From NCBI GenBank assembly GCA_046483005.1, contig JAWOEA010000004.1, positions 23,323 to 87,322 on the forward strand: a stretch of DNA of 64,000 nt. Direction: 5' to 3'. The position numbers and the translations under genes are program-made. The notes beneath the pieces are model-generated. The model searched no databases, had not been told where the DNA came from, and saw nothing but the letters and a program-made list of their open reading frames with translations. This DNA comes from Candidatus Undinarchaeales archaeon. GTDB taxonomy: Archaea > Undinarchaeota > Undinarchaeia > Undinarchaeales > JALTGF01. Positions 1,148 to 62,508 of this stretch are shown in pieces. Positions within the stretch are counted from its first letter, which is position 1; each line of letters opens with the position of its first letter.

Positions 1148-1149
1148 AG

Positions 1150-1223
1150 TGGGACCGGTGAGATTTGAACTCACGACCACGGCGCCCCGAACGCCGCATC
1201 ACACCAAGCTAGACCACGGTCCC
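1150..1223 (-). tRNA. tRNA-Pro (anticodon CGG), 74 nt, no encoded CCA
   Basis: The reverse complement folds as a cloverleaf. The acceptor stem GGGACCG pairs with CGGTCCC. The T-arm is GTGAG-TTCAAAT-CTCAC. The anticodon stem CGGCG/CGCCG carries the loop TTCGGGG, giving anticodon CGG. Confidence 0.8.
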
Positions 1224-39817: not shown

Positions 39818-42088
39818 TTGGTACAATATTTATATTCTATGGAAAGTGTAAACCACAAATACCTTAAAGACGGAGCAATTGAATCTCGGATATATCAGGA
39901 GACTATTCTGGGGACTGCTTTGAAGAAGAATACTTTAGTGGTCTTGCCTACCGGTCTTGGAAAGACATTTGTTGCTGCAATGCTTGCAGCCAAAAGAGTT
40001 GAGGAAAATCCGAGATATAAGGTTCTGTTTCTGGCTCCGACTAAACCATTGGTTGTCCAGCACTGCGAAACATGGAAAGATGTTTTTGAAATTGAAAACG
40101 ATGAATTTCAGGTATTTACAGGAGAAACACCTCCTAAGAAAAGAGAAAAAACATACAAAGACCCGCAATTTATTTTTGCAACCCCTCAGGTTATTCAGAA
40201 TGACATACTTGCAGACAGGTATCCTTTAGATGAAACTTCTCTTCTAATTGTTGATGAAGCTCATCGGGCTTCTGGAAATTATCCTTATGGATTTATTGCC
40301 AAAAAATTTGTTGAGCAGGCAACTGAGCCGAGAATTCTTGGTTTGACTGCTTCGCCTGGTTCAAGTAAAGGAGATATTGAAAGAGTCTGCAACGAACTCT
40401 ATATTGAAGATATTGAAAGCAGGAGCAGAGAAAATGAAGAAGTTAAGAAATATATCAAGAAAAGAGAATTTAACTGGGTAAAAGTTGAGCTTCCAAAAGA
40501 CTTTGTCAGAATTAAATCGCTTCTTGAAGCAGTTATGAAGGATCATCTGAGATTTTTGAAGCAGGGAGAGATTATTAAAAGCTCTGCCATTGGAAAAATT
40601 AGAAAGAAAAAAATGCTGAAGCTTCAGTCTGAGCTGGTTAGGAAAGCCCAAAATAATTCTGATTTTTATAAATACATAAGTGCGGTTGCTGCTGTTTTGA
40701 AAATACATCATGCTTTGGAGCTTCTTGAAACGCAGGGAGTTAAACCACTCTGTAAATATTTCAAAAAACTGGACAGAGATAAAAGCAAGGCAGCAGGTAA
40801 TATTTTAAACAATCATGATTTCGGTAAAGCCAGAAGGATTGCTGAAACTTTAAAAGAAAAGAAAATTGAGCATCCGAAGGTAGATAAAATGCTTGAGCTT
40901 GTTGAATCTGTAGACAGAGCGATTGTTTTTGCTAACTACAGGTCTTCTGTTGATACTATAATTAAGAGATTAGAAAAGGCAGGAATTAAGGCCATTCGTC
41001 TGGTCGGGCAGGCGAAGGGAGGTGAAGACGGTTTGACACAGAAAGAACAGGTTAAAAGATTGGATGATTTTAGAAACGGAAAATATGACGTTCTTGTTGC
41101 AACCAGTATTGGAGAAGAGGGGCTGGACATTCCGGAAGTTGATTTGGTCGTATTTTATGAGCCCGTTCCTTCTGCAATTAGAAGTATTCAGAGGGCAGGA
41201 AGAACAGCAAGGCACAGTCCTGGAGCTGTTAAAGTTTTAATGACAAAAGGTACCAGAGACGAGGCTTATTACTGGGCTTCTTTTTACAGAGAAAGAAACA
41301 TGGAAAAGGCGTTGAAAAAAATTAATCTAGGTAAGGTTCAGAGAACTTTGGATAAATTTTCAGGAAATAAAAAGAAGAAGAGTAAAAAGGAAAAAAATAA
41401 AGATAACTCAAAAGAAAGTGCATTTGAGAAAAAAGACAAAGATGAAAAATTAGTTGTTTTTGCAGATACTAGAGAATCCGGATCCGGTATTTTAAGGGAG
41501 CTTAATGAGAATGGACTTGAAATTAGGATTAAGCAGCTTGATGTTGCTGATTTTCAAATTTCTGACAGAGTGGCAGTTGAAAGAAAAACTACAAGAGATT
41601 TTGTTAAATCTTTGGTTGACGGCAGGCTGTTTAAACAGGCCCCTAGCTTTTCTGAAATGTTTGAGAAACCGTTGATTATTGTTGAAGGAGAGGAACTTTA
41701 CAATCATGGAAAAATACACCCAAATTCAATCCGGGGAGCCCTTTCGTCCCTTGTTTTGGATTTTGGCCTTCCTATAATTTATACAAAAGATATGAAGGAA
41801 ACTGCCTCGTTTATTGAACTTTTGGCGAAAAGGGAGCAGTTGGATGAGAAAAGAGAAGTTGTTTTAAGGAGCGGCAAGCGGCCCAAAACAAAAGAGGAGA
41901 TGAAGCAATATATTGTTGAATCACTACCGAATGTTGGTCCTAGGATGGCTAAAAAATTATTGAAAAATTTTGGATCAGTAAAGGAAATATTTAATGCTTC
42001 TGAAACTCAGCTGAAAAAAATAGATAATGTAGGAGATAAAAAAGCAGGGAGAATTAAAAAAGTTATTGAGGAAAAATATGAAGAATAA
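39818..42088 (+). CDS. hef: Hef: helicase-associated endonuclease for fork-structured DNA (SF2 helicase plus ERCC4 nuclease plus HhH2)
   Basis: The helicase motifs PTGLGKT and DEAH are present. The C-terminal ERCC4 motif reads ADTRESGSG...VERKTTRDF, followed by a helix-hairpin-helix tail. A Lys-rich linker lies between the domains. Confidence 0.85.
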   Translation: MVQYLYSMESVNHKYLKDGAIESRIYQETILGTALKKNTLVVLPTGLGKTFVAAMLAAKRVEENPRYKVLFLAPTKPLVVQHCETWKDVFEIENDEFQVFTGETPPKKREKTYKDPQFIFATPQVIQNDILADRYPLDETSLLIVDEAHRASGNYPYGFIAKKFVEQATEPRILGLTASPGSSKGDIERVCNELYIEDIESRSRENEEVKKYIKKREFNWVKVELPKDFVRIKSLLEAVMKDHLRFLKQGEIIKSSAIGKIRKKKMLKLQSELVRKAQNNSDFYKYISAVAAVLKIHHALELLETQGVKPLCKYFKKLDRDKSKAAGNILNNHDFGKARRIAETLKEKKIEHPKVDKMLELVESVDRAIVFANYRSSVDTIIKRLEKAGIKAIRLVGQAKGGEDGLTQKEQVKRLDDFRNGKYDVLVATSIGEEGLDIPEVDLVVFYEPVPSAIRSIQRAGRTARHSPGAVKVLMTKGTRDEAYYWASFYRERNMEKALKKINLGKVQRTLDKFSGNKKKKSKKEKNKDNSKESAFEKKDKDEKLVVFADTRESGSGILRELNENGLEIRIKQLDVADFQISDRVAVERKTTRDFVKSLVDGRLFKQAPSFSEMFEKPLIIVEGEELYNHGKIHPNSIRGALSSLVLDFGLPIIYTKDMKETASFIELLAKREQLDEKREVVLRSGKRPKTKEEMKQYIVESLPNVGPRMAKKLLKNFGSVKEIFNASETQLKKIDNVGDKKAGRIKKVIEEKYEE

Positions 42089-42857
42089 AACATTTTATGA
42101 TTTAGTCAGGACACCGGGAACCCTTTCAAAGGTAATTCTTTCAATGCCATTAAAAAAAATTATTGAAAAGGGAGTATGGTATGGAAGGTGTGTGTTTGAA
42201 AGTATTGCAAGAATGGAACTCGCAGTATCTTTTCATTTAGAAAATGAAAAAGGTGAGAGTGGACTTCTTTCCTCCAGTGGTAAAGGCGCCTGGAGTCTTG
42301 AAGTTGTGAAGGATGGAAAAAGCCCTATAAGCGATACTTCTCCTATTTGCTGCGTTTATAATGAAAAATTAAAAAAATTGATTAGAAAACCTATTGATAA
42401 CCATGTGTTTTCAAGTAGTGAAATTAAAGAGTTTGTTAAAGAATATGGAACAAAAATAAATAAAATTAAAATTCCCAGAAAAAAGATAGATTATATTTGT
42501 AAAGAAAAAGGAATTGATTTTTCAAGAGAAATAAAAGGATATCCGATTGGCGCCCGACGGGATTTTTTTAAAAATAAAGGCAAAGAGAAAACATTCAATG
42601 AATATATGTTTACTCTTGCTGCTTTAGAGAATCTTGTAGAAGTTGATAATGAATATGGAATCAGAGGGTATTTTATGGATAAAAATAGAAGCGTTGGAAT
42701 AATTAAAAGAATTCCTCCAAAGCTTGTAGAAGCAGTTGCAAAAAGAGAATATACTGAACAGGAAGATAAGCTAATTGAAGAGTATGAAAAGAGATTAGAT
42801 ATTGGTTTTTATGAATTTGATGAAAATAAAAATGAATTTGTTTTGAAAAATAGTTAG
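42066..42857 (+). CDS. hypothetical protein
   Basis: 263 aa with no motif. Confidence 0.4.
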   Translation: MRKNMKNKTFYDLVRTPGTLSKVILSMPLKKIIEKGVWYGRCVFESIARMELAVSFHLENEKGESGLLSSSGKGAWSLEVVKDGKSPISDTSPICCVYNEKLKKLIRKPIDNHVFSSSEIKEFVKEYGTKINKIKIPRKKIDYICKEKGIDFSREIKGYPIGARRDFFKNKGKEKTFNEYMFTLAALENLVEVDNEYGIRGYFMDKNRSVGIIKRIPPKLVEAVAKREYTEQEDKLIEEYEKRLDIGFYEFDENKNEFVLKNS

Positions 42858-43270
42858 CTGACCAAAACCTCTTTTCTGAAACTTGTAAAATCCTCATAAA
42901 TTTTATCAAGCTGCTTAATTGCCTGTTCTTTTAATTTACCAGGAACTACTCCTGAAGGGAGGACTTCCCATTTTACTAAACTTGGAGGAGGTTCATCTGC
43001 TTTCATTGAGAGTTCTATTAAAACTTCATAGGTAAACCAGGCCTCATTAATAAAATCTCTTGCATCTGCAGTAATTTGTTTTGCTTTATTTGGATGTTCT
43101 CTTGCTTCTCTTATATACATATTTTCAAAATTAGAAATCCATTGTTTAAGCTCTGCTGCTTGTTGATGAATTACTGTGGCATCAACTGCTCCGGTTGTTG
43201 GGTCGATTGCAGATTTACATACTCTCCGTATAGATCTTAGTTTTGATTCGAGTTCTCTTATTAGTGCCAT
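42854..43270 (-). CDS. hypothetical protein
   Basis: 138 aa. Confidence 0.35.
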   Translation of the reverse strand: MALIRELESKLRSIRRVCKSAIDPTTGAVDATVIHQQAAELKQWISNFENMYIREAREHPNKAKQITADARDFINEAWFTYEVLIELSMKADEPPPSLVKWEVLPSGVVPGKLKEQAIKQLDKIYEDFTSFRKEVLVS

Positions 43271-43383
43271 ACTGAAAGAGTGGTTTCTAAAATACTTAAA
43301 AGTGTTGGTTCAGGTTGACAAGGTATTTAAAGTGTAGTTAATTATTATCCATATAGATAAAAATTAAGGTAAATTTTGATAAA

Positions 43384-43917
43384 ATGGGAAGAGGGAGACC
43401 GCCAAACAGTCCAGTAAGAGACAGGATGCAGATGATTGTAGATGCACTTGGGGTTACTTATGGTTATGAAATTCATAAGGCATATGAAGAAATTTTTGAA
43501 CCAATTGAATTGAGGTCAATGTATTATCATTTAAAAAAGGGAGTTGAATTGAACCAGTTTGAAGAAGTTGGTGTTGAAAAAGTTAAAGGTCCATTTACAT
43601 GGGGGGATGTTAGTATAAGAAAATATTATATTTTAGGACCGGAAGCTGAAAAAAGAGCAACTGCAGAAGTCCAAAAAGTAATTGAAAATGGTGATTTTGA
43701 AAGAAAGGAACCAAAAGATTTTGTTTCATGGGATAAAGTTATAAATGATTATAAAGAGAAATTAGAAAAAGAGATTAAAAAGAAAATGAAAGACAGCGAT
43801 GCAAAAGATTTACTAGACAACATTGATAAACTCCTTTCCTGGCTGGAAGTAAACTCTGACGAAGATGTAGAGAGTATTAAAAAGATCAGGAAAAAAGTAG
43901 AGAAAATACTTGAATGA
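43384..43917 (+). CDS. PadR-like winged-helix regulator with coiled-coil C-terminal extension
   Basis: TYGYEIHKAY...SMYYHLKKGVELNQFEE matches the PadR HGYEI...SLYPAL+RLE pattern. Confidence 0.45.
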   Translation: MGRGRPPNSPVRDRMQMIVDALGVTYGYEIHKAYEEIFEPIELRSMYYHLKKGVELNQFEEVGVEKVKGPFTWGDVSIRKYYILGPEAEKRATAEVQKVIENGDFERKEPKDFVSWDKVINDYKEKLEKEIKKKMKDSDAKDLLDNIDKLLSWLEVNSDEDVESIKKIRKKVEKILE

Positions 43918-43919
43918 AG

Positions 43920-44558
43920 ATTCAGAAACTAGTGAAACCCTCTGAGCCCTTTATTTCTATTGGAGATTAGAAAAATTGTCTCCATTTCCGAAAACTTTTG
44001 GAAAAATTTGAACTTTCTGAAATGAAAATATTGGATTTTTAGGTTTTTATGAAAAATCTCCACTTGAAATAATGGTGTGTTTTTAATATTTGTGAGGCGC
44101 AGGTTTTTGGTTTAGTTAGTTTTAGTAATACTATTTATTATTATTTATTATTATCTTTATGGAAAATATTTATTTATTATTTATTATCCATATAGAAAAT
44201 ATTTCACTTACAAACAAAACAACACACCCCTTTATTTCCCGTGGAGAACCCCTTTATTTCCTGTAGAGCTAAAAAGAAAGCCATTTTGGGCTTTAAATTC
44301 AAAATAAATAAATTTTTTAAAGTTTTTTACCAAACGAAACAGAATTTTGGACCTTTTAGACTCTCTCAACAAGACTCTAAAAGAAGAAAAAGCGCCCTTT
44401 TCCCAAACAAAGCCATCAAATCTATTTGTTCCACCTGAAATGAAGGGGGTGTGGGTTCCAAAAGTACTTATTTTGACAAATAAATATATAAACCAGTATT
44501 TCCTATGCAAAAAAGCAGTTAAAAAGTTGATCTTTTTTCTGCAGTGGGGTAAAAATTA
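43920..44558. other. oriC: chromosomal replication origin (oriC): ORB elements with G-strings flanking an AT-rich duplex-unwinding element, immediately upstream of orc1/cdc6
   Basis: ORB-like ctccacttgaaataatggtgtg (44058-80, +), ttccacctgaaatgaagggggtgtggg (44429-55, +), cacacccctttatttcccgtggag (44223-46, reverse complement = ctccacgggaaataaaggggtgtg) and aacccctttatttcctgtagag (44248-69, reverse). The DUE at 44120-44205 is made of (tatttattat)n. A weaker ORB lies at 43980. Confidence 0.7.
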
Positions 44559-45752
44559 ATGGCACAAAAGAAATTAGATGATCTATTCGACAACTTCCTA
44601 AATAAACAATCTCTTTTTAAGAATAAAAGGACTCTACAAGATGTTTATACACCTGAAACAGTTCCTCACCGCGAAGATCAAATTAAACAACTTGCTTCTA
44701 TACTCGTTTCAGCTTTAAGGGGTGAAAAACCTTCAAATGTTTTCGTTTATGGTAAAACCGGAACTGGTAAAACACTAGTTTCAAAATATGTAGCCAAAGA
44801 GCTTGAAACTCGTTCAAAAAGAGAACAAAGAAAACTTAAAGCAAGCTACCTTAATTGCAAAATGGAGAAAGTAAATACTTCATATCGACTGCTTGCTCAT
44901 TTTATTAATGAATTAGGTGAAGATGTCCCTGCAACCGGACTTCCTACAGACCAGGTTTATAAAAAATTCCTTAAAACAATTGATTCCGAAGGAGGGGTCC
45001 ATATTTTAATACTCGATGAGATAGAATCCCTTACTGATTCAAATATTCTCTATGATTTAACAAGAATCAACACTGAATTAGAAAATGCAACAATTACTAT
45101 TGTAGGGATTACAAATGATTTGTCTTTTACTGATGATCTAGATTCAAGAATAAAATCAAGTTTGTCAGAAGAGGAACTTGTTTTCCCTCCATATAATGCA
45201 ATACAACTTCAAGATATTCTTTCTCAGAGAGCAAACACTGCATTAGAAAACGGATGTCTGGAATCTGGAACAATTGAAAAATGTGCTGCACTTGCAGCTT
45301 TGGAACACGGTGATGCTAGAAGAGCTCTTGATTTGTTAAGAGTTGCCTGTGAACTTGCAGAACGGGAGAGTGAAGATTCAGTGACAATCAGGCATGTTGA
45401 GCTGGCACAAAAGAAACTTGATATTGATCGGATTGTTGAAGTGGTCAAAACTCTGCCTAAGCAATCTCAAATTGTTTTAAACAGTATAATTTATTTAAAA
45501 GACCTGAATAAAGAAGAAGTAGCAACAGGAGATGTATTTGAAGTTTATAAAAATTTCTGCAAACAACTTGGAAACTCACCTTTAACTCAAAGAAGAGTAT
45601 CTGATTTAATTTCTGAACTAGATATGCTTGGTTTAATCAACGCGACAATTATTTCAAAAGGAAGGTATGGAAGAACGAGAAAAATAAAGCTGGATATGTC
45701 TGAAAAAGCACTGGAAGACAGCAAGGAAATTCTTAAACAGGAATTATTATGA
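44559..45752 (+). CDS. orc1: Orc1/Cdc6 replication initiator (AAA+ plus winged helix)
   Basis: It has the Walker A VYGKTGTGKT and Walker B LILDEIE motifs and a C-terminal wH. Confidence 0.9.
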   Translation: MAQKKLDDLFDNFLNKQSLFKNKRTLQDVYTPETVPHREDQIKQLASILVSALRGEKPSNVFVYGKTGTGKTLVSKYVAKELETRSKREQRKLKASYLNCKMEKVNTSYRLLAHFINELGEDVPATGLPTDQVYKKFLKTIDSEGGVHILILDEIESLTDSNILYDLTRINTELENATITIVGITNDLSFTDDLDSRIKSSLSEEELVFPPYNAIQLQDILSQRANTALENGCLESGTIEKCAALAALEHGDARRALDLLRVACELAERESEDSVTIRHVELAQKKLDIDRIVEVVKTLPKQSQIVLNSIIYLKDLNKEEVATGDVFEVYKNFCKQLGNSPLTQRRVSDLISELDMLGLINATIISKGRYGRTRKIKLDMSEKALEDSKEILKQELL

Positions 45753-47173
45753 CAGAAAATACCGCTCCAAAAATAATGAATCTTTTTTTGGAGAATAACA
45801 TTCAACTCTCCAGAGATGCTTTAGATGAAATTCTCAAAAACGAAGAGCCTTTTTCTTATTCAGAAGATTTACTTAAAACATCAAAAAGAGAGGGCAGGCT
45901 GTTCATTAATCTTGAACAATTAAAAAAAGGAATAATTAAACCAGTAATTGAAGTAATAAAAAATTTCGATCAAACATATAAAATTTCTGACGTTCAGGAT
46001 ATGTCTGCATATTTCCAAGCAAGACTCAATTATTTTAAGAACAATCTTCAAAAACGCCTGCAATCAGTTGTTTCAATAAACAATGCAAAAAGAGCAGGCA
46101 GGGAAGAAATAAGTTTAATTGCAATTGTTTCCGGGAAAAGAACCACGAAAAGTGGAAATGTGATGTTTAGTCTTGAAGACTTTTCAGGAGAAATGAGAGC
46201 AATTGCAACAAAAGAGAAGCTAATTAAGGAAGCCGATAAAATTGTAAATGATGATGTTTTGGGGTTTACAGGGAACATGAGTAATGGTATATTCTTCATA
46301 AATGAGTTTACATGGCCAGATATGCCTATCCATAATAATCAAAAAACCAAAGGAGATGATGCAACTGCAGCATTTATTTCTGATGTTCATATTGGAAGCA
46401 GGGAATTTGAGGCTAAAAAATTTCAGAAAATGATTGACTGGATCAACGGCGATCTAGATTCTCATACAGAGCTTCACCCACATCTTTCTGAAAAGCTCAA
46501 ATATATTTTCATAGCCGGAGATCTTGTTGACGGTGTTGGCGTTTATCCAGGACAGGAAGACGATCTTATAATTAAAGATATTTATAAACAATATAAAGAA
46601 GCAGCGAAAATTTTAGAGCAAATTCCTGAAAGAATAAAAATAGTGATTTCTCCAGGAAACCACGACTATGTGCGGTTAGCCCAGCCTCAGCCTCCTGTGT
46701 CAAAAGAAACAGCTCCGGATTTGTATGACCTGCCGAATGTTGATATGATAAGCAACCCTGGATTGATTAAGGCAGGAAGTGGTTCTGAGAGCACTAACAT
46801 TTTAATTTATCATGGGACCAGCATAGATAAAATGGTAATGTCTGATCCAAATTTGAAGGACGGCTACAAAAAACCCGGAAAAGTAATGGCGGCATTAATG
46901 AAAAGAAGACACTTATGTCCTCTTTTTGAAGGCGATATAATGCCTCAGCCAAACCACGGCGACCCTTTAGTAATTCCTGAAGATATTGATGTCCTTCACA
47001 TGGGCCACGTCCATTCAAATGATATTGTAGATTACCGCGGAGTTACTTTAATTAATAGTGGGACCTGGCAGGCTAAAACAAGTTTTCAGGAATTTTTAGG
47101 ACATGAACCGACGCCAGCAAGACTACCTCTTTTAAATTTAAAAACAAACCAAATTACTTTAACACAATTCTAA
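45749..47173 (+). CDS. polB2: DNA polymerase II (PolD) small subunit DP1
   Basis: It has an OB domain plus a calcineurin-like phosphoesterase domain (FISDVHIG, GNHD). It lies next to DP2. Confidence 0.85.
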   Translation: MTENTAPKIMNLFLENNIQLSRDALDEILKNEEPFSYSEDLLKTSKREGRLFINLEQLKKGIIKPVIEVIKNFDQTYKISDVQDMSAYFQARLNYFKNNLQKRLQSVVSINNAKRAGREEISLIAIVSGKRTTKSGNVMFSLEDFSGEMRAIATKEKLIKEADKIVNDDVLGFTGNMSNGIFFINEFTWPDMPIHNNQKTKGDDATAAFISDVHIGSREFEAKKFQKMIDWINGDLDSHTELHPHLSEKLKYIFIAGDLVDGVGVYPGQEDDLIIKDIYKQYKEAAKILEQIPERIKIVISPGNHDYVRLAQPQPPVSKETAPDLYDLPNVDMISNPGLIKAGSGSESTNILIYHGTSIDKMVMSDPNLKDGYKKPGKVMAALMKRRHLCPLFEGDIMPQPNHGDPLVIPEDIDVLHMGHVHSNDIVDYRGVTLINSGTWQAKTSFQEFLGHEPTPARLPLLNLKTNQITLTQF

Positions 47174-50100
47174 TGGAACAAAAAGAATATCTCAAAACAC
47201 TGGAAGATGGGGTAAATAAAGAATACAATATCGCTTCGGACGCAAGAAAGCAGGGAGTTGATCCTGCGAAAGAACCGGAAATATATATTGCAAAAGACCT
47301 TGCAGATAAGGTAGAGGGTCTTATTGAATTTAAAGGACTTGCAGATATTGTCAGAAAACTACAGGAAGAAGTTAATACTGAAGAAGAAGTCGCCTTTAAA
47401 TTAGTTGATGAGGTAATTAAAAGAATAGACGACAGAGAAGAGGCAGCGGATTTAGCTGTAAGGGCTGCTCTTGCATTTCTAACACAAGGGGCGGTTGCAG
47501 CTCCTTTGGAAGGAATTGCAAAAATTAAAATTTTAAAAAATCCAGATAATTCCGAATATTTGGCAATTTACTACGCCGGACCTATCAGGGCGGCGGGAGG
47601 GACCGCAGAAGCTATCTCAGTAGTGGTTGCAGATTATGTCCATAAAGCATTAGGCTTAGACAGATACAAACCAAATCAAAAAGAAATAGGAAGATATGCA
47701 GAAGAAATACGATGGTATCACCGGAGAAAAAGACTACAATACCGGCCAAAAGAAGAGGAGGTCAAAACAATAATCAAAAATGTTCCAGTATGCGTTGACG
47801 GAGACCCAACTGAACCCTATGAAGTTTCAACTTACCGGAATTTAGGCAGAGTAAAAACAAACAGAGTTCGGGGAGGAATGTGTCTTGTTGTTGCAGAAGG
47901 TCTTGCTCAAAAGGCACCTAAATTATTGAAAAGATTAAAACCCATCCAGGAAAAGTACGGCCTTGACTGGTCATGGCTCGAAGGGCTTCTAGTAAAAAGA
48001 AAAACAGATGAAAGTAAAAAAGAAAAGGAAAAAATTTCAAATATTTTTGAAAAAGAGATACCTGAAGAATTCAAAAAAGAGTATAAAGATCACTTATTTT
48101 CAATAGATGAAATTACTGAAATTGTCCAGGAAACAAGTGCGATTGATGTCCTTGAAAACTATACTGATGAGGAACCCGAGAAAAAAGGAAGCGATAAGTT
48201 CTTAAATGAAATTCCTGCCGGCAGGCCTGTATTTTCTTACCCCGGAAGAAAAGGAGGATTTAATTTAAGATATGGAAGAACAAGAGGAAGTGGTTATGCA
48301 GCTCTCTGTTTAAATCCTGCAACTATGCATCTCTTAGATGATTTCATAGCAATAGGAACTCAAATAAGATTGGAACTTCCTGGAAAAGCAGGCATTGTAA
48401 CTCCCTGTGATACAATAAATGGTCCTACAATTCTTTTAAAAGATGGAGAGCTTTTGCAGGTTGATTCTTTAGAGGAAGCAAAAAAGTACAAAGGGAGAAT
48501 TGAGAGATTTACTAATTTAGGGGATATTTTAATCTCTGCAGGAGATTTCTTTGAGAATAATCATAAACTTCTGCCTCCTGCTTACTGCGAAGAATGGTGG
48601 GCAAAAGAAGTTAAGAAAGCTCAGAAAGATAAGAAAGCTTCAGCTAAAGAAATTTTAAATTCCTCAGATTATCTAAACGATCCTTTTAAGAAACCAGATT
48701 TTGAAAAGGCAAAAGAATTTTCAGATAAGTTTGAAGTTCCTTTACATCCTGTTTTTACTTTTCACTGGAATTATATTAGAAATTCAGATTTATTGGAACT
48801 TGCAGAGGCGCTTAAGGAAGCTGAAGTGGCTGATAATAAAATCATCCTGGAAAACAAATCCTCAATTAAGAAAATATTAGAAAAATTGTGCGTCTTCCAT
48901 AAACTAAAAGATTCAAAAATAGTTATTTCAAAGCATAAAGAACCTCTTTTATTTTCATTTGGCCGGCCTAAAGAGTGGAAAATAATAATACAAACAATAG
49001 AACAAAATAAACGGCACAAAGCATTAGACACCATTAACAAATTAGCAGAAGTCACTATAAAAGATAAGGCGCCAACTCGAATTGGTGCAAGAATGGGAAG
49101 ACCGGAGAAGGCAAAACCCAGAAAAATGACGCCTGCTCCTCATGTTCTTTTCCCAACAGGCGCTAAACAAGGCAGAGTTAGAGACTTCATGAAACTCTAT
49201 AAAGAAAAAAAGAAGGCAAAACCCTACCTTGCAAAATTTAAATGCGATAAATGCTCATCCTTCCAGTTTTTTCCCCAGTGTCCAAACTGCGGGGAAGAGA
49301 CAAAACTTCTAAATTTCTGTCCAAGGTGCAGAATTTTTTCAAGGAAGGATACCTGTGAAAAGTGCAATGCAAAAACCGTAACTTATGAACAGCAGGAAAT
49401 TGATATTAATGAATTACTGGATTCTGCCGCTGAAAAATTAGGAAGAAAGCTCCCAGACAGTATAAAAGGTATTTTGGGTATGTCCACTAAAAATAAGATT
49501 CCCGAGGCAATTGAAAAAGGGATTTTAAGGGCTGAGCAGGACCTTTATGTATTCAAGGATGGGACGATAAGACATGACAGCACCGATGCTCCTCTAACTC
49601 ATTTCAAGCCGTTTGAGATCCACACTTCTATTGAAAAACTGAAGAAATTGGGATATAATAAAGACATTTATGGAAAAAAACTTGAAAACGAGGACCAGAT
49701 TCTCGAATTAAAACCACAGGATATTTTAATAAGTGATTATGGTGAAAACTCTGCAACATCTTATCTGTTAAAAACAAGCAAATTCGTAGATAATCTCCTT
49801 GAATCTTACTATGGTCTTGAAAAATATTATAATTATGAAAATAAAAAAGACCTTGCAGGAACATTCGTAATTGCTCTTGCACCGCACACTTCTACAGGAA
49901 TTGTAGGCAGGATTATCGGCAGTACGGACGCTAAAGTCACCTTTGCCCACCCCTGCTTCCACGATGCAAAAAGAAGGGATTGCGACGGCGATGAGGATGC
50001 AGTAATGCTACTTCTTGACGCACTCCTAAATTTCTCAAAAAGTTTCCTCCCTCAAAAAAGAGGAGGTAAAATGGACGCCCCATTAGTTATAACTTCCAAG

Positions 50101-50718
50101 TTGGGGGCGCTGGAAATAGATGATGAAGTATATGACATTGACATTGTAGGAGAATATCCTCTTTCTTTCTATGAAACAGTTGAAAATACGGCCGACCCAA
50201 ATGATGTAAACTTACTAACATTCGGAGATACGATTTACGGAGAAGATCCTTTCGCCGGCTGGAATTATACTCACGAAACTACTGACATCAATAATGCTCC
50301 TTTGTCCAATATTTATACAAAAGGAAAAATGTCTGAAAAACTTAAAAAACAAATGCATCTTGCAGAAATGATTGATGCGGTTGATGAAAAAAATGTCGCT
50401 GAAAAAATCATTGACAGTCATTTCCTACCAGATATAAAAGGGAATTTAAGGACTTTTTCAAAACAGAAAGTCAGGTGTACTAAATGCAATTCAAAATACA
50501 GAAGACCTCCTCTTTCCGGAGTATGTACTAATTGTGGAGGAAATCTCACGTTTACTGTTCACAGAGGCTCGATTGAAAAATATCTGCAGATATCTAAAGA
50601 TTTAATTAAAAAGTATAACGTTTCACCTTACATTAGCCAGCAGATAGCTTTATATGAATCAAACATACTTTCAATATTTGGAGAAAAATCTCAGAAAAAA
50701 TTACAGTCCTTCACATAA
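47173..50718 (+). CDS. polC: DNA polymerase II (PolD) large subunit DP2
   Basis: 1181 aa with Zn-finger clusters and the CDGDEDAVML catalytic region. It shows no intein-sized insertion. Confidence 0.85.
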   Translation: MEQKEYLKTLEDGVNKEYNIASDARKQGVDPAKEPEIYIAKDLADKVEGLIEFKGLADIVRKLQEEVNTEEEVAFKLVDEVIKRIDDREEAADLAVRAALAFLTQGAVAAPLEGIAKIKILKNPDNSEYLAIYYAGPIRAAGGTAEAISVVVADYVHKALGLDRYKPNQKEIGRYAEEIRWYHRRKRLQYRPKEEEVKTIIKNVPVCVDGDPTEPYEVSTYRNLGRVKTNRVRGGMCLVVAEGLAQKAPKLLKRLKPIQEKYGLDWSWLEGLLVKRKTDESKKEKEKISNIFEKEIPEEFKKEYKDHLFSIDEITEIVQETSAIDVLENYTDEEPEKKGSDKFLNEIPAGRPVFSYPGRKGGFNLRYGRTRGSGYAALCLNPATMHLLDDFIAIGTQIRLELPGKAGIVTPCDTINGPTILLKDGELLQVDSLEEAKKYKGRIERFTNLGDILISAGDFFENNHKLLPPAYCEEWWAKEVKKAQKDKKASAKEILNSSDYLNDPFKKPDFEKAKEFSDKFEVPLHPVFTFHWNYIRNSDLLELAEALKEAEVADNKIILENKSSIKKILEKLCVFHKLKDSKIVISKHKEPLLFSFGRPKEWKIIIQTIEQNKRHKALDTINKLAEVTIKDKAPTRIGARMGRPEKAKPRKMTPAPHVLFPTGAKQGRVRDFMKLYKEKKKAKPYLAKFKCDKCSSFQFFPQCPNCGEETKLLNFCPRCRIFSRKDTCEKCNAKTVTYEQQEIDINELLDSAAEKLGRKLPDSIKGILGMSTKNKIPEAIEKGILRAEQDLYVFKDGTIRHDSTDAPLTHFKPFEIHTSIEKLKKLGYNKDIYGKKLENEDQILELKPQDILISDYGENSATSYLLKTSKFVDNLLESYYGLEKYYNYENKKDLAGTFVIALAPHTSTGIVGRIIGSTDAKVTFAHPCFHDAKRRDCDGDEDAVMLLLDALLNFSKSFLPQKRGGKMDAPLVITSKLGALEIDDEVYDIDIVGEYPLSFYETVENTADPNDVNLLTFGDTIYGEDPFAGWNYTHETTDINNAPLSNIYTKGKMSEKLKKQMHLAEMIDAVDEKNVAEKIIDSHFLPDIKGNLRTFSKQKVRCTKCNSKYRRPPLSGVCTNCGGNLTFTVHRGSIEKYLQISKDLIKKYNVSPYISQQIALYESNILSIFGEKSQKKLQSFT

Positions 50719-50954
50719 TGACCAAAGACAAAAAGAAACAGGAAGAAGAGGAAGAACTTTTATCGGAACCGGAAGAACCAAAGGAAGAAAAACCCGAATT
50801 AAAAGAACCAAAGGAAATGGAAGAATTTGAAGAACCTTCTTTTACTTCCCCTCAGGAATCTCTAAAAGAAAATGAAAAATTTTTATTCGCACTCTTGTTC
50901 TTTATCTTACTAACTTTCTTGTACTTATTTTTATTATCTAAAGGCATTCTTTAG
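50718..50954 (+). CDS. small tail-anchored protein (acidic N-terminus, single C-terminal TM)
   Basis: The N-terminus is E/K-rich and the C-terminus is FLFALLFFILLTFLYLFLL. Confidence 0.35.
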   Translation: MTKDKKKQEEEEELLSEPEEPKEEKPELKEPKEMEEFEEPSFTSPQESLKENEKFLFALLFFILLTFLYLFLLSKGIL

Positions 50955-52195
50955 CCAAATAAAAGAATAAGAAACGGTACCGAAATCCCTATATAACAAA
51001 GAACAACTGGAAAAATGAAAAAACCCATACATTCTGCTCTTCTAACCCCAATTAAAGGAGGAATCAGCCCAATTAAAGTCCCCAAAACAAGAATTCCGAG
51101 CCCGTAAACACCAGTTAATAAAAAGACGGTCAGAGCAATAAAACAAATTATCAAAATAGTGAATCTCCTATAATTTTCCATGTCCATGTCGCTTAATTTT
51201 CTTGCCATTTTTATCCCAATTTTAAAATGAAGAAACGTTGCAATGCTCCCTGAAATTAAGATAACGCCGAGTAAAATAACTAACTCTCCAAAACTAAAAG
51301 AACCAATAACTTTATTGATGGCAATTATAATGCCGGATCTCATTTTCTGAATTGAATACATAACAACTAAAGGAATAATTATATTTGAAGTATTAACACC
51401 AGAAACAGCAACCAAAAATTCTTTGCTGCTCGACTTTCTTGAAGCCTGCTGAACCATATATGCTGCCTGTGCAGAACCAATGCCTGGAAATAAACCGACA
51501 AGCATTCCTGCAAGCCCACCTAAAACAGAATTTTTAAAAATTTTTCTGAATTTCAGACTCATACCTATGTCTTCCTGAACCGGAATAAAAACTTCATTTT
51601 TCAAACTTAATAATAGAGTACTAATTCCAAACATCCCTGAAAGAGCAGGAAATATTGCTTCTACACTTAGAAATGAGTTGAATAACAGGAAGCCAAAGAA
51701 GCCCGATAAAAGAAAAATTAAAAATGCAATAATCGGCTTTTTCTCAAAAAATAAACCGATTAGAACAAAGAAAATCAGGATAAATGGAAGCATTTGTTCA
51801 ATTCCTGAATAAATTGTTGGTATTATTGAAATCAAAACAAGAAAAAGGCCGGAAGTCAAAAGTAATGAAAATAAAGAACCTGCACCAGTCAGCTTAATGG
51901 CTTCAATCGCCTCACCGTCCAAAAGCATTCTATGCCCCGGAAGAACAGACATAACCGTATCTTCATTAGGAGCTCCCAGTAAAATGGAAGGAATAAAATC
52001 AAGGAAAGAATGAACGACCGCCATTGCAATTATACCGGAAGCAATTGAAATGAACTGAAATGAAGAAAAGAAAGGCAGTGCAGTAATTAAAAGAACTGAA
52101 ACTGTATTGATATGAAGTCCCGGGATTAGGCCGGTTAGGACTCCAAGAGAGCAGCCAAACAAAGTAAAAATTAAAATTTCAAAAAGAATATTCAT
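50951..52195 (-). CDS. polytopic membrane protein, possibly a DUF112/TctA-like transporter
   Basis: 414 aa with about 12 TM helices and Gly-rich helices. Confidence 0.35.
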   Translation of the reverse strand: MNILFEILIFTLFGCSLGVLTGLIPGLHINTVSVLLITALPFFSSFQFISIASGIIAMAVVHSFLDFIPSILLGAPNEDTVMSVLPGHRMLLDGEAIEAIKLTGAGSLFSLLLTSGLFLVLISIIPTIYSGIEQMLPFILIFFVLIGLFFEKKPIIAFLIFLLSGFFGFLLFNSFLSVEAIFPALSGMFGISTLLLSLKNEVFIPVQEDIGMSLKFRKIFKNSVLGGLAGMLVGLFPGIGSAQAAYMVQQASRKSSSKEFLVAVSGVNTSNIIIPLVVMYSIQKMRSGIIIAINKVIGSFSFGELVILLGVILISGSIATFLHFKIGIKMARKLSDMDMENYRRFTILIICFIALTVFLLTGVYGLGILVLGTLIGLIPPLIGVRRAECMGFFIFPVVLCYIGISVPFLILLFG

Positions 52196-56691: not shown

Positions 56692-59316
56692 TTGAAAAGC
56701 ACTTTACATGCCCCAATTATGACTATAAAATTTAAAGAGAAGCCCGCTACAGATAAATTGATCCTCTCAGAACTGGATCCCTTAGTCAGGAAATGGTTCA
56801 AGCAGAAGTTTGGGAAATTCTCAAAACCCCAAAAATATGGAATTTTACCGATCCATCAGGGAAAAAATATTCTAGTTTCAGCTCCAACCGGCTCCGGAAA
56901 AACACTTCTTGCATTTCTTTCAATTTTAAATGAACTAATTGTTTTAGCAAAAAGAGACGAACTTGAAGATAGAATTTATGCACTTTACGCTTCTCCTTTA
57001 AAAGCACTGTCAAGAGACATTGAAATAAACCTGAAAGAACCGCTGGAAGAAATGGAGGAAATTCATAGAGAATCTCTTGGAATTAGAATAGCAGTAAGAA
57101 CTGGAGATACAAGCCAGTACGAAAGACAGAAGATGCTGAAAAACCCGCCTCATATTTTAATCACTACTCCCGAAACTCTTGGAATTGTTTTGGTAGCTCC
57201 AAAATTCAAAAAGAAAATGATGGATATCAAATGGGTAATTATAGATGAAATCCATGCCCTTGCTCCAAATAAAAGAGGCGTTCATTTGTCTCTTTCACTA
57301 GAACGGCTTCAGAATTTAGCAGGACCTTACATACGAATAGGCTTAAGTGCAACAGTTGCTCCTCTTGAAGAAATGGCAAAATATTTAGTAGGTTATGAAA
57401 AAGGAAAATTGAGAGACTGTTTAATTGTTGATGTCCAATTTACGAAAGAATTAGATTTAAAAGTTTTAAGCCCTGTTAAAAATATAATCAGCGCGTCTCA
57501 GGATGAAATGCAGGAGAGTCTATATGAGTTAATGGACGACTTAATTCAGAAGCATAGAACAACACTTGTTTTTACAAATACAAGGTCTGCAACTGAAAGA
57601 GTAGTCCATCATTTAAAGACAAAATTCCCTAAAAAGTATGTTGAAAATATAGGGGCCCACCACTCCAGTTTATCAAAAGAACACCGGCTTGAAATCGAGC
57701 AGAAATTAAGAGACGGAGAATTAAAATCAGTTGTCTGCTCAACTTCTCTGGAATTAGGAATTGACATAGGGTATATCGATTTAGTCATTCTTTTAGGGAG
57801 TCCTAAATCGGTAGCAAGAGCTCTTCAAAGAGTAGGAAGGTCTGGTCATCAATTGCATGACAAGATAAAAGGAAGATTCATCGTAATGGACAGAGATGAC
57901 TTAGTCGAATGCGCAGTCATGCTCAAAGATGCAGTTGAAAAGAAAATCGACAGAATTAAGATACCCAAAAATGCACTTGATGTTCTTTCCCAGCAGATTT
58001 ACGGCATTGCAATTGGAAATCAGCAGCATATTGAAACTGTTTATGATTTAGTAAAAAGAAGCTACTGCTACCATGATTTAGAAAGAGAAGAATTCATGTC
58101 AGTTATTGATTATCTGGCAGGAGAATATGTGTCTCTTGAAGACAGAAATGTCTACGCAAAGATATGGCATAACAAAGAAAAAGGATTAATTGGAAAAAGA
58201 GGAAGACTTGCCAGAGCAATTTATTCAACAAACATCGGAACAATACCTGATGAATCTTATTTAACAGTTAAACAGAAAGATGAACCAATCGGAAAAGTCG
58301 AAGAAGCATTTTTAGAAAGAATTAAGAAAGGCGATATTTTCGTTCTTGGGGGAAAAACATACCGGTTTAATTATGCCAGAGGAATGACTATTCAGGTAAC
58401 TCCTCAACCAAATAAAGTGCCAACCGTTCCAAGCTGGTTCTCCGAGATGCTCCCTTTGAGCTACGACCTTGCCCTTGAAATTCAAAAATTCAGGAGAAAA
58501 ATGGAGGAGCAGTTTAAGGCTGAAAACTCAGAAAAAGAAGTTAAGAAATTTATTAACGATTATCTATATCTAAATGAATATGCAGTCAACTCAATCTATC
58601 AATATTTTAAGGAGCAGTATTTGTATGCAGAAATTCCTCATGATAAAAAATTAGTAATCGAGTTCTATCACGGTTTCTCAGATAAAAAGTATGTAATTTT
58701 CCATTCCCTTTACGGAAGAAGAACAAACGACGCCTTGTCAAGAGCAATCGCCTATTTAATTTCAAATGTAAAAAGAAAAAACATTGCAATTAACCTGACA
58801 GATAACGGCTTCTATTTAACAACAAACTCCGGAAAACTACAGGTACTGCAGGCTTTGAAAAAATTAAAATCTAATACTCTAAGATCAACTTTAAGAAAAG
58901 CAGTTGAAAAAACGGAAATTTTAAGAAGGAGGTTCAGACACTGCGCCGGCAGGTCTCTAATGATTTTAAGAAACTACAAAGGAAGGAAGAAAAGCGCCGG
59001 AAAACAGCAGGTCAGTTCTAAAATTCTACTTAGTGCAGTAAGAAGAATCTCAAAAGACTTTCCCATTCTAAAAGAAGCAAGGAGAGAAGTACTTGAAGAT
59101 TTAATGGATGTTAAAAATGCAGAAAAAGTACTGAAAAAACTGGAAAAAGAAAAGATTGAAGTAAAAATAATTGCAACAGATGTTCCAAGTCCCTTTGCAT
59201 TAAATTTAATTGCAAGAGGATACATGGATATCTTAAAAATGGAGGACCGACTGGAATTTGTCAGAAGACTTCACAAGACAATTCTGGAAAGGATTGAGCC
59301 CTATGAAACTGACTAA
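56692..59316 (+). CDS. lhr: Lhr-core ATP-dependent DNA helicase (SF2, DEIH)
   Basis: It has APTGSGKT and DEIH motifs, a winged helix, and the Lhr C-terminal domain. 874 aa. Confidence 0.8.
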
Positions 59317-60022
59317 CAATATTGAAGCAAGCGGTCTTGCACTTTATCTAGAAAAAAAGAAAACTTTAGTTATATCTGATTTACACTTAGGAATAGAAAG
59401 CAGCATGCACAGGTCTGGCTTTTTAGTTCCAAGATTTCAGTTCAAAGAAATAAAATCAAAGCTGGAAGAAATCTTTGAAAAATTATCTCCTGAAACGATT
59501 ATAATTAACGGGGACTTCAAGCACGAATTTGGAAAGATTCCAAAACAGGAATGGAGAGAAGGATTAAGAATGATTGATTTTTTATTTGAAAATACAGATG
59601 AACTTATACTTACAAAAGGAAACCACGATCCGGTTTTATTTCCAATTGCAGAAAAAAGAAAGGTTCCAATCAAAGAAGATGGGATTTTAATTGGAAGTAC
59701 TTACATAACCCACGGCGACAAAATTCCAAAAAACAAGGAGTTTGAAAAGGCAGATACTGTAATAATTGGAGATGTCCATCCTGCAGTCAGTTTATCTGAC
59801 AAAGGCGCTTCTGAAATCTATAAGTGCTTTCTGGTTGGAAAGTTCAACGACAAAAAATTACTTGTTCAGCCGAGTATGTCCCAGTCCTCTATCGGTTCAG
59901 ATGTTTTAAAAGAAAAAGTAAGGAGTCCTTTTCTAAAAGGCAGTCTTGACAATTTCAATGTTTTTGTATCTGCAGATAAAATAATGCATTTTGGAAAAAT
60001 AAAAAATCTCAGGGAACAATAG
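59303..60022 (+). CDS. metallophosphoesterase (MPE) partner of Lhr
   Basis: Calcineurin-like motifs DLHLG, GDFKHE and GNHD. The start is placed at MKLTNN, whose ATG overlaps the lhr stop codon (gene overlap 59303..59316). Confidence 0.7.
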
Positions 60023-60365
60023 TTTTCAAAAAATCAAGAACGATTATAATTACTGTCAGATAAAATAAATTGCTTCTGTAGAATTCAACGAGGATATTTC
60101 CGTCCCCATACATCCCTCTCAAAAGAATCATTGAAAAAATAACAAGTATTATTGATATTAAACCAATTACTGGAGTAAAGCCGTGGTGGAATAAATGAGC
60201 CATTGTTGATACAATTATTACAACAGCAAAAGCCGAAATCAATACTGGAGAAACTCCTCCTTTTGTAAATGAAAGAAAAGCAACTGCCCCTCCGAATATA
60301 ACGACTAAAAAAGTCCCTACCAAACAAACTGGATCAAAGTGCCCTTTAGTGTTTCGAGTTATCAT
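60009..60365 (-). CDS. small membrane protein (3-4 TM)
   Basis: It is hydrophobic throughout. Confidence 0.35.
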   Translation of the reverse strand: MITRNTKGHFDPVCLVGTFLVVIFGGAVAFLSFTKGGVSPVLISAFAVVIIVSTMAHLFHHGFTPVIGLISIILVIFSMILLRGMYGDGNILVEFYRSNLFYLTVIIIVLDFLKTIVP

Positions 60366-60660
60366 CTCGAATATAATATTGACTTTCTTTAAATATCTTT
60401 TTGAAATTAATTGTCTTTATTTATCGTTTTTTAATAATTTAATTGTCATACTTTTACTGTCATCAGACAAATTAGAGTCTTCAATTTCTTTCATTGTGTT
60501 TTCCGTAGTAGTATCTTCAGATTCGTCTAATGATATTTTTTCCATTGTCATTTTTATTTCATCTCTTTTTTTTATGTAGTTATAAAATATAATTAGGTTA
60601 GATAGTATTTATTTTTTTAGTTTAAGCAACCAATCCTATAATTTATATGTTTATTTGCAT

Positions 60661-60822
60661 AATAATTGATATGCCTTGGAAAATAAAACCTATCGATAAA
60701 TCAAAAATAAAAAAAGATAAATTATTATTAGAAAACCTTTTAGGAGAACTTTCAAAGAAAAAAGAAACTCCTAAAGTGAAAAAGTTAAAAGCAGAAATTG
60801 AAAAGATAAAAGAAGAACTCTA
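60661..60822 (+). CDS. small Lys-rich coiled-coil peptide (53 aa), convergent with the rSAM gene; speculative
   Basis: Manual translation: MPWKIKPIDKSKIKKDKLLLENLLGELSKKKETPKVKKLKAEIEKIKEEL. Confidence 0.2.
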
Positions 60823-60825
60823 GAA

Positions 60826-62133: not shown

Positions 62134-62235
62134 TTTAATTACCTTTTAGATTTCTAATTATGATTACTGAGACTACTTGTTCTCCTTATTTATGAAAATT
62201 CTCTTACGATTTACTATTTTTTTATTTATACTGTA

Positions 62236-62424
62236 TTAGAACATAGAAGAATCCGGCGCTGCCCAGCAATAATTGCATGCCTTTATAGTATTCTCGTCTT
62301 TATGTTCAATCATTGCACCTTTAACTTTATCTTTACAACTTGGATCAAGATCTAGTTTTACTACTTTAGTCATTATGTCTTCTACCTTTTTGTCTTTTAT
62401 TCCTTTACCTTTTCCATTTGTCAT
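62236..62424 (-). CDS. 62-aa Lys-rich peptide with C-terminal Cys/Trp core (CNYCWAAPDSSMF); candidate precursor peptide for the downstream rSAM/SPASM enzyme
   Basis: It lies 102 bp upstream of the rSAM gene on the same strand. A strong SD, ggaggtga, sits 8 nt before the ATG, and a TATA-like tatattaa about 35 bp upstream. Three Cys lie in the C-terminal half. Confidence 0.45.
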   Translation of the reverse strand: MTNGKGKGIKDKKVEDIMTKVVKLDLDPSCKDKVKGAMIEHKDENTIKACNYCWAAPDSSMF

Positions 62425-62508
62425 TTTCTAGTTCACCTCCTTTTCCATTTTATCTTAATATACTTTAATTAAACAAACTTTATATCTTTTCCCATCTACT
62501 TTTAAGAT

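Follow-up and report, generated by a model that had tools for sequence, protein, structure and literature searches.

In a 64-kb window of a metagenome-assembled genome (MAG) of Candidatus Undinarchaeales, a DPANN archaeon with a G+C content of about 35%, the intergenic gap of about 640 bp at positions 43918-44558 is very probably a genuine Orc1-dependent chromosomal origin of replication of the oriC1 type. The gap separates a gene for a 177-aa protein (43384-43917, plus strand) from orc1 (44559-45752, plus strand), which is directly followed by the genes for the PolD subunits DP1 and DP2. An earlier note, made from the letters of this DNA alone, had proposed a replication origin here with orc1, DP1 and DP2 as its neighbours. 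Domain identification bears out these neighbours and confirms the order oriC-orc1-dp1-dp2, and the origin itself is supported by a cluster of origin recognition boxes (ORBs), a duplex unwinding element (DUE), a gene for an Orc1-1-type initiator, conservation in relatives and a switch of the strand-corrected skew at the gap.

Five full ORBs and a sixth, short one (mini-ORB-f), the latter at the orc1 promoter, were found in the gap (Table 1). The core shared in the window is YTCYA-N3-GAAAT-RAW-GG(G/T)G. When the 64 kb were scanned with an 18-mer derived from the copies, five matches with at most two mismatches were obtained, all of them within the gap, and eight with at most three mismatches, against 0.69 expected. 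As an independent test motif we used the 'Common' ORB of Ori-Finder 2, TCCA[CG]T[TG]GAAA[TC][GA]AAGGGGT (PMC4164010), which, with at most three mismatches, matched exactly the five ORBs of the gap (43945-44449) and no other place in the 64 kb; the expectation was 0.08, and none of 100 shuffles reached five matches. In addition, the ORBs of the window fit, in both core and G-string, the pan-archaeal Pelve consensus CTTCCAGTGGAAACGAAAGGGGT (PMC4153887).

The earlier note had counted at least four copies. All four are present at the positions and on the strands that it gave (44058 and 44429 forward, 44223 and 44248 reverse), but the fifth full copy at 43945-43965 (minus strand) and the sixth, short copy had escaped it. 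Similarly, the literal consensus that it offered, CTCCACNTGAAAT, fits the copy at 44058 and, with one change, that at 44429, but not the reverse copies, which read CTCCACGGGAAAT and CTCTACAGGAAAT. The DUE is enclosed by ORB-b and ORB-c, which pair as 27-nt inverted copies 137 nt apart. We also observed a near-palindromic block, TTTCCGAAAA, at 43986-43995 between ORB-a and ORB-b, which is kept in the related locus L002 amid diverged surroundings.

The DNA between the inverted boxes is the least stable of the window. By nearest-neighbour stability, the DUE ranks first of about 64,000 windows as a 60-, 80- and 100-bp stretch, its 60-mer having a dG of -54.4 against a window mean of -75.0 (sd 4.9) and -59.0 for the next best stretch. 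The same position is favoured in relatives: in seven of eight sequences (the window and six of seven related loci) the DUE-equivalent position of the gap holds the 60-mer of lowest stability in the entire locus. The proposal that ORBs surround an AT-rich DUE is thus upheld, since the inverted ORB-b and ORB-c enclose precisely this DNA. Its former description as about 80 bp of (TATTTATTAT)n holds only in part: the AT-rich tract is real, but TATTTATTAT forms a short run of 2.3 copies (44132-44154) inside a 33-nt unit that is repeated 2.1 times at 44132-44204.

These data also bear on the explanation that repeats and AT-rich tract are chance products of an AT-rich gap, or that a gene for a small protein or RNA lies in the gap. 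AT-rich tracts are indeed common because the genome has 35% G+C, yet the DUE is an outlier even for such a genome and the ORB matches number 5 and 8 where 0.08 and 0.69 are expected. Three mechanically called open reading frames (ORFs) of 65-92 aa, at 44241-44438 (plus strand), 44347-44559 (plus strand) and 44232-44510 (minus strand), overlap the gap, but they are absent in relatives: no ORF of at least 60 aa was found in the homologous gap of L002 or L001, whose Orc1 proteins are 94% and 76% identical to that of the window, respectively. Therefore, we regard the gap ORFs as spurious, in agreement with the earlier note. The gap gave no significant Rfam match, the sole one being at chance level (rox1, E 0.45), and it contains no tRNA. 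In conclusion, the chance or small-gene explanation is effectively refuted already.

The comparison with L002 separates the proposed elements from their surroundings. The spacers of the gap are 47-57% identical and the third codon positions of orc1 57% identical between the two, while ORBs, DUE and promoter block reach 92-96% (94% for ORB-c/d and 95% for the block containing the TATA-like element and the mini-ORB). On this alignment, the ORBs, the DUE and the promoter elements are under purifying selection. The earlier note had considered that the region might be lost or rearranged in relatives that retain orc1; instead, nine related, Undinarchaeota-like loci have kept the layout (65-94% identity of Orc1, and two loci more distant). 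In all of them orc1-dp1-dp2 is preceded by an ORB, the DUE, a reverse ORB or a pair of them, a spacer, a forward ORB and a TATA-like element, and the forward promoter-proximal ORB lies at about -79 to -179. The tandem reverse pair with its 22-bp spacing is kept in L002, L081, L001, L082 and L003. Tandem reverse pair and promoter-proximal forward ORB are the invariant boxes.

The enrichment of boxes upstream of orc1 extends to DPANN at large. In 80 DPANN loci, the core TCCANNNGAAA occurs at 2.25/kb in the 1 kb upstream of orc1 compared to 0.096/kb elsewhere, a 23-fold difference, and positions outside the search seed are informative as well, with only T or C at -1 and GGtG following the AAA spacer. 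In 18 of these 80 loci the contig ends less than 700 nt upstream of orc1 (L003, L006, L009, L012, L019, L020, L025, L026, L031, L038, L042, L052, L056, L058, L064, L070, L075 and L076), and that of L003 ends inside the DUE. Assemblies thus seem to break at origins, which are therefore often missing from MAG contigs.

The initiator gene agrees with the type of box. Its 397-aa product contains AAA+, Cdc6 lid and Cdc6 winged-helix domains (Pfam), and the closest solved structures are S. solfataricus Cdc6-1 (2QBY_A, 3e-101) and A. pernix ORC1 (2V1U, 1e-98), with Cdc6-3 (4e-46) and ORC2 (2e-19) far behind. In the alignment to the Orc1-1 structures the segments TGL of the initiator-specific motif (ISM), QRRVSD of the helix-turn-helix (HTH) and GRYGxT of the wing are identical. 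With a chain-numbering offset of 11, these segments contain G120/L121 (ISM), R341 (HTH) and R365 (wing), and in Sulfolobus mutation of G120/L121, R341 or R365 weakens origin binding (PMC3089459). Judged from gene and boxes, the reduced genomes of Undinarchaeota have kept the ancestral Orc1-1/ORB system intact.

The same gene helps to weigh the view of the locus as the replicator-initiator module of a captured plasmid or virus instead of an ancestral chromosomal origin, which we consider very unlikely. Archaeal origins with their orc1 genes are known as acquisitions from mobile elements (PMC4010727), and three small genes with no assigned function lie just upstream of the gap. Against this, the initiator belongs to the Orc1-1 type, by which the widely conserved oriC1 is defined (PMC12141716), orc1 sits in an operon-like unit with both PolD subunits, and it is the only Orc1 gene in the 64 kb. 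In addition, the arrangement gap-orc1-dp1-dp2 is kept at 38-94% protein identity while the gene neighbourhood on the left varies.

A further line of evidence comes from strand composition. The earlier note had expected a minimum of the cumulative GC skew at the gap, and none was seen: across the window neither raw GC or AT skew nor the cumulative curves have an inflection at 44 kb, raw GC skew follows the gene strand, and its cumulative curve peaks near 49-50 kb. Since the raw skew tracks the gene strand and the corrected skew has a sign opposite to that of bacteria, the raw test would mislead here. We modelled the plus-strand GC skew of each gene as the sum of a coding-strand term and a positional term. 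The best change point of the corrected GC skew lies between 43917 and 44559 (about 44.4 kb), both with all sites and with third positions; with all sites the residual sum of squares (RSS) falls from 219.8 to 111.3, which none of 2000 permutations of gene order matched (p<0.0005). Left of the origin, coding-strand skew is 0.242 for plus-strand and 0.081 for minus-strand genes, and right of it 0.080 and 0.255, respectively, so that all four classes of genes agree on the switch.

The switch recurs with the same sign at the homologous gap of two relatives. In L089 (38% G+C) the RSS drops from 363 to 86 and the gap holds the best change point; in L088 (46% G+C) it drops from 277 to about 48, and the gap ties for the best change point (48.6 compared to 47.2 one gene to the left). 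A switch at the gap in three genomes argues for long-term use of this place as a swap point of leading and lagging strand. Strand-corrected AT skew gave no significant change point at the origin. In the pooled skew of the 80 DPANN loci the right flank is nearly devoid of minus-strand genes, which makes the effects of replication and of coding inseparable there.

The boxes close to orc1 raise a different possibility. ORB-e lies about 25-30 bp upstream of the TATA-like element, an assignment based on its position and on what is known of archaeal promoters, and mini-ORB-f lies between this element and the orc1 ATG (44559), where the transcription start is expected. The two boxes thus bracket the putative core promoter of orc1. 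The mini-ORB is kept in all relatives, where its position is occupied either by a perfect ORB core, TTCCATAAGAAAT/TCCATAAGAAAT (L082 and L087), or by a TGCA variant (L001, L003, L081, L083 and L084); a TGCA variant of the ORB is already published (PMC4153887). With one box on either side of the core promoter, Orc1 bound there should feed back on the transcription of orc1-dp1-dp2, and the arrangement of sites suggests that Orc1 represses its own promoter.

If this were the whole function of the boxes, they would be Orc1 operator sites autoregulating the orc1-polD operon, and the origin would be dormant or unused, with replication starting elsewhere or through recombination. The conserved positions of the two promoter boxes fit such a role, and there are precedents: in T. 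kodakarensis the origin and Cdc6 are dispensable (PMC5663688), and in haloarchaea dormant origins that bear ORBs exist (PMC4595724). Autoregulation, however, has no need of a conserved, extremely unstable 100-bp element that lies, with further boxes on its flanks, 300-600 bp upstream, and the strand-composition switch falls exactly at the gap in three genomes. We therefore hold a purely regulatory role of the boxes to be unlikely, although less so than capture from a mobile element.

Several points weigh against an active chromosomal origin at this place. All support for Orc1 binding and for initiation is derived from sequence, and, as the case of T. kodakarensis illustrates, origins can go unused or be dispensable. 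The orientation of the ORB to the left of the DUE varies: L081, L082, L083, L084 and L087 have it in reverse, whereas in the window, L002 and L001 it is forward; inverted boxes around the DUE are therefore not an invariant of the clade, and which boxes load MCM is uncertain. The polarity of the skew is opposite to the bacterial rule, the plus strand having an excess of G left of the origin (+0.08) and of C right of it (-0.083), and only 20 kb of the window lie to the right of the origin. Finally, the layer of the model that invokes an accessory factor, presented below, consists of co-occurrence and a fold prediction only.

As to polarity, a naive reading would call this origin a terminus, and programs that look for a skew minimum would misplace it. 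Leading strands in the clade appear to be C-rich, the reverse of the bacterial rule, and the position of the switch supports the origin. A preprint (bioRxiv 10.1101/2023.11.15.567178) describes for archaea a G excess, at third positions as well as in non-coding DNA, that anti-correlates with the predicted leading strand; the reversed polarity found here is compatible with this, without being proven by it. For work on MAGs the case is a warning, since the origin is invisible in raw GC skew and the correction brings out a switch of reversed sign. A strand-corrected switch at an archaeal origin also bears on the claim that archaeal skews come from gene orientation alone.

By analogy with Sulfolobus, Aeropyrum and Pyrococcus (PMC12141716, PMC5333045 and PMC1904270), an Orc1-dependent origin at this locus would work as follows. 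One Orc1 monomer would bind each ORB with fixed polarity through its winged helix and the ISM of the AAA+ domain, bending and underwinding the DNA. ATP-bound Orc1 on the boxes flanking the DUE would recruit MCM hexamers onto the DUE, followed by melting of the DUE and departure of forks in both directions. Orc1 on ORB-e and mini-ORB-f would at the same time exert the feedback on the orc1-dp1-dp2 unit discussed above. A dimer of a PadR-like protein on palindromic sites could repress its own gene, occupy the DUE and modulate access to it.

This last step refers to a second kind of element. The earlier account of the region missed the palindromes inside the DUE and the linked gene for a putative DNA-binding protein. 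Each 33-nt repeat of the DUE holds a palindrome of the form ATTATTTW-CYATATRG-WAAATAAT, and a 24-nt palindrome of this kind also precedes the 177-aa protein gene at the left edge of the gap (Table 1). The core C[CTA]ATAT[AGT]G has a density of 2.04/kb in the origin gaps of the related loci and of 11.3/kb in the promoters of the homologous gene, against 0.083/kb elsewhere in these loci (Poisson, 2e-12 for origin gaps and 3e-15 for promoters). The DUEs of these loci hold one or two copies, and the same palindrome precedes the homologous gene in eight of nine related loci. The contig of L086, the most distant locus, starts inside a variant palindrome: its DUE contains the variant core CAATATTG, in place of CCATATGG, as a perfect 24-nt palindrome, and the same variant stands at the contig edge upstream of the gene. 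This hints at co-variation.

Within the 64 kb only two intergenic matches to the core have AT-rich flanks, the promoter site and one DUE site, the second DUE copy being degenerate; the other eight core matches are all inside genes and lack palindromic flanks. We also considered the palindrome as a genome-wide motif comparable to ucm, the DUE-internal motif of Sulfolobus. Within the 64 kb this is not supported, as the palindrome 14-mer is not enriched across the window (8 matches compared to 6.9 expected) and the core has only the two intergenic sites with AT-rich flanks.

The gene next to the gap keeps its place beside the origin in this clade. A homologue is found just left of oriC in nine of nine loci of the subfamily, at a distance of 0.4-3 kb and on the same strand, with an identity of 47-83% in the seven closest loci and of 38-45% for the distant P0141 and P0143. 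The family comprises 36 homologues by a word-indexed search and 184 cluster representatives by a profile search, and an N-terminal RGRP is nearly invariant across it. Sequence searches assigned the 177-aa protein, which is annotated as hypothetical, to no known family: Pfam gave no family at E<=0.001, three sub-threshold, chance-level matches to unrelated families at E<=10 and no match to PadR (PF03551) even at E<=10, and a profile search of the PDB sequences with the family returned nothing at E<=10. The AlphaFold2 model of the protein (pLDDT 93.7, pTM 0.87) has a winged HTH, whose wing is long, and a helical domain at the C terminus, and the top Foldseek matches in the PDB are the PadR regulators 6abt, 5dym and 5x11, a PadR-operator complex (27-30% identity over about 80 residues, probability 0.9-1.0, E about 1.5e-3).

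From position and predicted fold, the palindrome upstream of the gene is a candidate operator of the gene's own product, and the DUE palindromes are probably bound by a dimer of this RGRP-tailed, PadR-like protein, a dimer being expected because the site is palindromic. That the 177-aa protein is a true accessory factor of the origin is a tentative proposal, which we favour less than its opposite. If true, it would be a lineage-restricted, independently evolved accessory or licensing factor bound at the origin, a counterpart of the Sulfolobus ucm-binding protein UBP with its site ucm or of bacterial origin regulators, and it would couple its own expression to the state of the origin.

Two further observations concern this family and its sites. 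A shorter subfamily of about 105-116 aa is present in contigs labelled Nanoarchaeota (L085, L090 and L091), where it shows no linkage to orc1. Palindromes of the form TTTWCWATATWGWAAA are present in about a dozen of 73 other DPANN origin gaps (L005, L012, L018, L022, L024, L027, L030, L032, L033, L065 and L077), 100-600 nt upstream of orc1, with a 3-fold enrichment (p=1.5e-4), and no homologue of the PadR-like gene was found within 4 kb at these loci. The palindrome arrangement may thus be wider in DPANN.

Table 1. Features of the proposed origin and adjacent genes (positions of the 64-kb window).
Feature	Position	Strand	Basis or remark
Promoter palindrome, 24 nt, ATTATTATCCATATAGATAAAAAT	43341..43364	.	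centre 32 nt before the start codon of gene 43384-43917; candidate operator
177-aa protein gene: N-terminal RGRP (AT-hook-like) tail, winged HTH of predicted PadR-like fold, C-terminal helical domain	43384..43917	+	
ORB-a, weak outer box, TCCAATAGAAATAAAGGGCT	43945..43965	-	matches the published motif with 3 mismatches; 81% identical in L002
ORB-b, left DUE flank, G-rich end (GGTGTG) toward the DUE	44058..44079	+	motif match; 93% identical in L002
DUE, 87-93% A+T	44111..44211	.	least stable DNA of the window; 92% identical in L002
DUE palindrome 1, ATTATTATCTTTATGGAAAATATT	44147..44170	.	midpoint of ORB-b/ORB-c; conserved in L002, L001, L081
DUE palindrome 2, TTTATTATCCATATAGAAAATATT	44180..44203	.	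33 nt (three helical turns) after palindrome 1
ORB-c, right DUE flank, TCCACGGGAAATAAAGGGGT	44223..44246	-	best consensus match, 1 mismatch
ORB-d, in tandem with ORB-c	44248..44268	-	22 bp start to start (two helical turns)
Second, shorter AT-rich tract between ORB-d and ORB-e, 80-85% A+T	44290..44335	.	stability profile; 82% identical in L002
ORB-e, promoter-proximal, extended G-string, GGGGGTGTGGG	44429..44455	+	motif match; 96% identical in L002
TATA-like element of the putative orc1 promoter, AAATAAATATATAAA	44478..44492	+	conserved block in L002, L081, L001
mini-ORB-f, without G-string	44498..44509	-	plus strand ATTTCCTATGCA; minus strand TGCATAGGAAAT
orc1/cdc6, Orc1-1-type initiator, 397 aa	44559..45752	+	Pfam and structure-sequence matches
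PolD small subunit DP1	45749..47173	+	domain identification
PolD large subunit DP2	47173..50718	+	domain identification

Gene order farther out from the origin is conserved in part. A gene for a Hef helicase-nuclease lies upstream of the gap at 39818-42088, and a Hef-type gene is likewise found a few kb to the left of the origin in L002, L082/L088 and L087. In the window, L086, L088 and L089, dp2 is directly followed by a TctA-family transporter gene (minus strand; 50951-52195 in the window). Between Hef and the PadR-like gene, the ORFs 42066-42857 (plus strand) and 42854-43270 (minus strand) gave no Pfam match. Relatives have ORFs of comparable size and position, for example 299-805 and 1162-1650 in L082; the single pair aligned, 43384-43917 of the window and 1162-1650 of L082, is only 23% identical. 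Elsewhere in the window, G+C is 28-31% at 59000-63000, compared to the overall value of about 35%, and ARAGORN reported a tRNA-Pro (CGG) at 1149-1223 (minus strand), yet a scan of the whole window at the Rfam gathering threshold gave zero matches, hence none to a tRNA family.

Among known systems, the oriC1 of Sulfolobus/Saccharolobus and of Aeropyrum pernix is alike in having full ORBs with a TCCA-N3-GAAA core followed by a GGGG(T) string, and the initiator of the window is closest to the two Orc1-1 proteins that were crystallised on ORB DNA. The number of boxes differs, with three at Sulfolobus oriC1 and five full ones plus one mini-ORB here. For Aeropyrum, Grainge et al. are said to have described four ORBs in 2006. 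The likeness extends to inverted ORBs around an AT-rich DUE of about 140 bp beside orc1-1 (PMC12141716) and, for Sulfolobus, to a short conserved motif, ucm, inside the DUE midway between the flanking ORBs. Unlike these systems, the locus studied here has a tandem reverse ORB pair with 22-bp phasing, and its DUE-internal motif is a 24-nt palindrome whose candidate binder has a PadR-like fold.

The Pyrococcus/Thermococcales replication island shares the order of origin, cdc6/orc1, PolD small and PolD large subunit, and Pyrococcus is alike also in its ORBs with TTCC and GAA cores, in a pair of AT-rich regions and in having one origin next to a single initiator gene (PMC1904270). In Thermococcales, however, a second cluster of ORBs and mini-ORBs, bound by Cdc6, lies inside dp1 (PMC1904270); in the dp1 of the window we found zero full-motif matches and 0-2 relaxed-core matches, which is background level. 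The boxes differ as well. A comparison of the ORBs with Pyrococcus, Sulfolobus and haloarchaeal motifs, which the earlier note had called for, indicated that the pan-archaeal core and G-string are shared, whereas the Pyrococcus boxes, of 34 bp, have another 3' part ([TC]TCCAGTGGAAA[TC][GA]AA[AG]CTC; PMC4164010) in place of the pan-archaeal GGGG(T) string seen here.

As for the haloarchaeal oriC1, ORB-e (TTCCACCTGAAATGAAGGGG) is one position away from the Halobacteriaceae motif TT[TC]CACC[GCT]GAAAC[GA][AC][GA]G[GT]G[GT] (PMC4164010). It has a prolonged G-rich tail, and ORBs lie around a DUE beside cdc6 in both cases. A separate, halophile-specific second G-string has been described (PMC1868953). 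The genomic context is different, being a PolD operon in a genome of 35% G+C in our case.

With respect to ucm and UBP, the resemblance is one of concept: a small, sequence-specific binder with its site in the DUE between Orc1-bound boxes (PMC12141716). In Sulfolobus the DUE-internal ucm is indispensable for the origin to function and UBP contacts MCM; ubp is described as confined to Sulfolobales and Desulfurococcales, and the authors explicitly raise the question of analogous proteins in other lineages (Dhanaraju et al. 2025, PMC12141716). The PadR-like candidate bears on this 2025 question of DUE-acting proteins outside Sulfolobales. The differences are considerable. While ucm has more than 300 genomic sites, the palindrome is found at the origin and at one promoter in 64 kb; UBP binds as a monomer, whereas a palindromic site implies an expected dimer; and here the protein combines a predicted PadR-like winged helix with an RGRP tail, its gene being origin-linked and apparently self-regulated. 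By analogy of position, the pair of palindrome and PadR-like protein may work like ucm and UBP; we say 'may work like', and do not count it as a member of that system, because there is no homology and the distribution of sites differs.

Compared to the PadR family, the 177-aa protein has the N-terminal winged HTH with a long beta-hairpin wing, the C-terminal helical domain and a palindromic target in common, but sequence searches do not detect it as PadR. To our knowledge, the nearly invariant N-terminal RGRP tail is not a PadR feature. In the literature, full-text searches found no paper linking Undinarchaeota to 'replication origin' or DPANN to 'origin recognition box', and titles and abstracts on DPANN oriC and Orc1 showed nothing that looked specific; the present locus would fix the replication origin for an uncultivated DPANN lineage. 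In conclusion, this origin is itself of a known type, shared in its main lines with the oriC1 of Sulfolobus and Aeropyrum, and should not surprise a specialist, while the putative operators in the DUE, the linked PadR-like gene and the reversed skew are the features worth following up.

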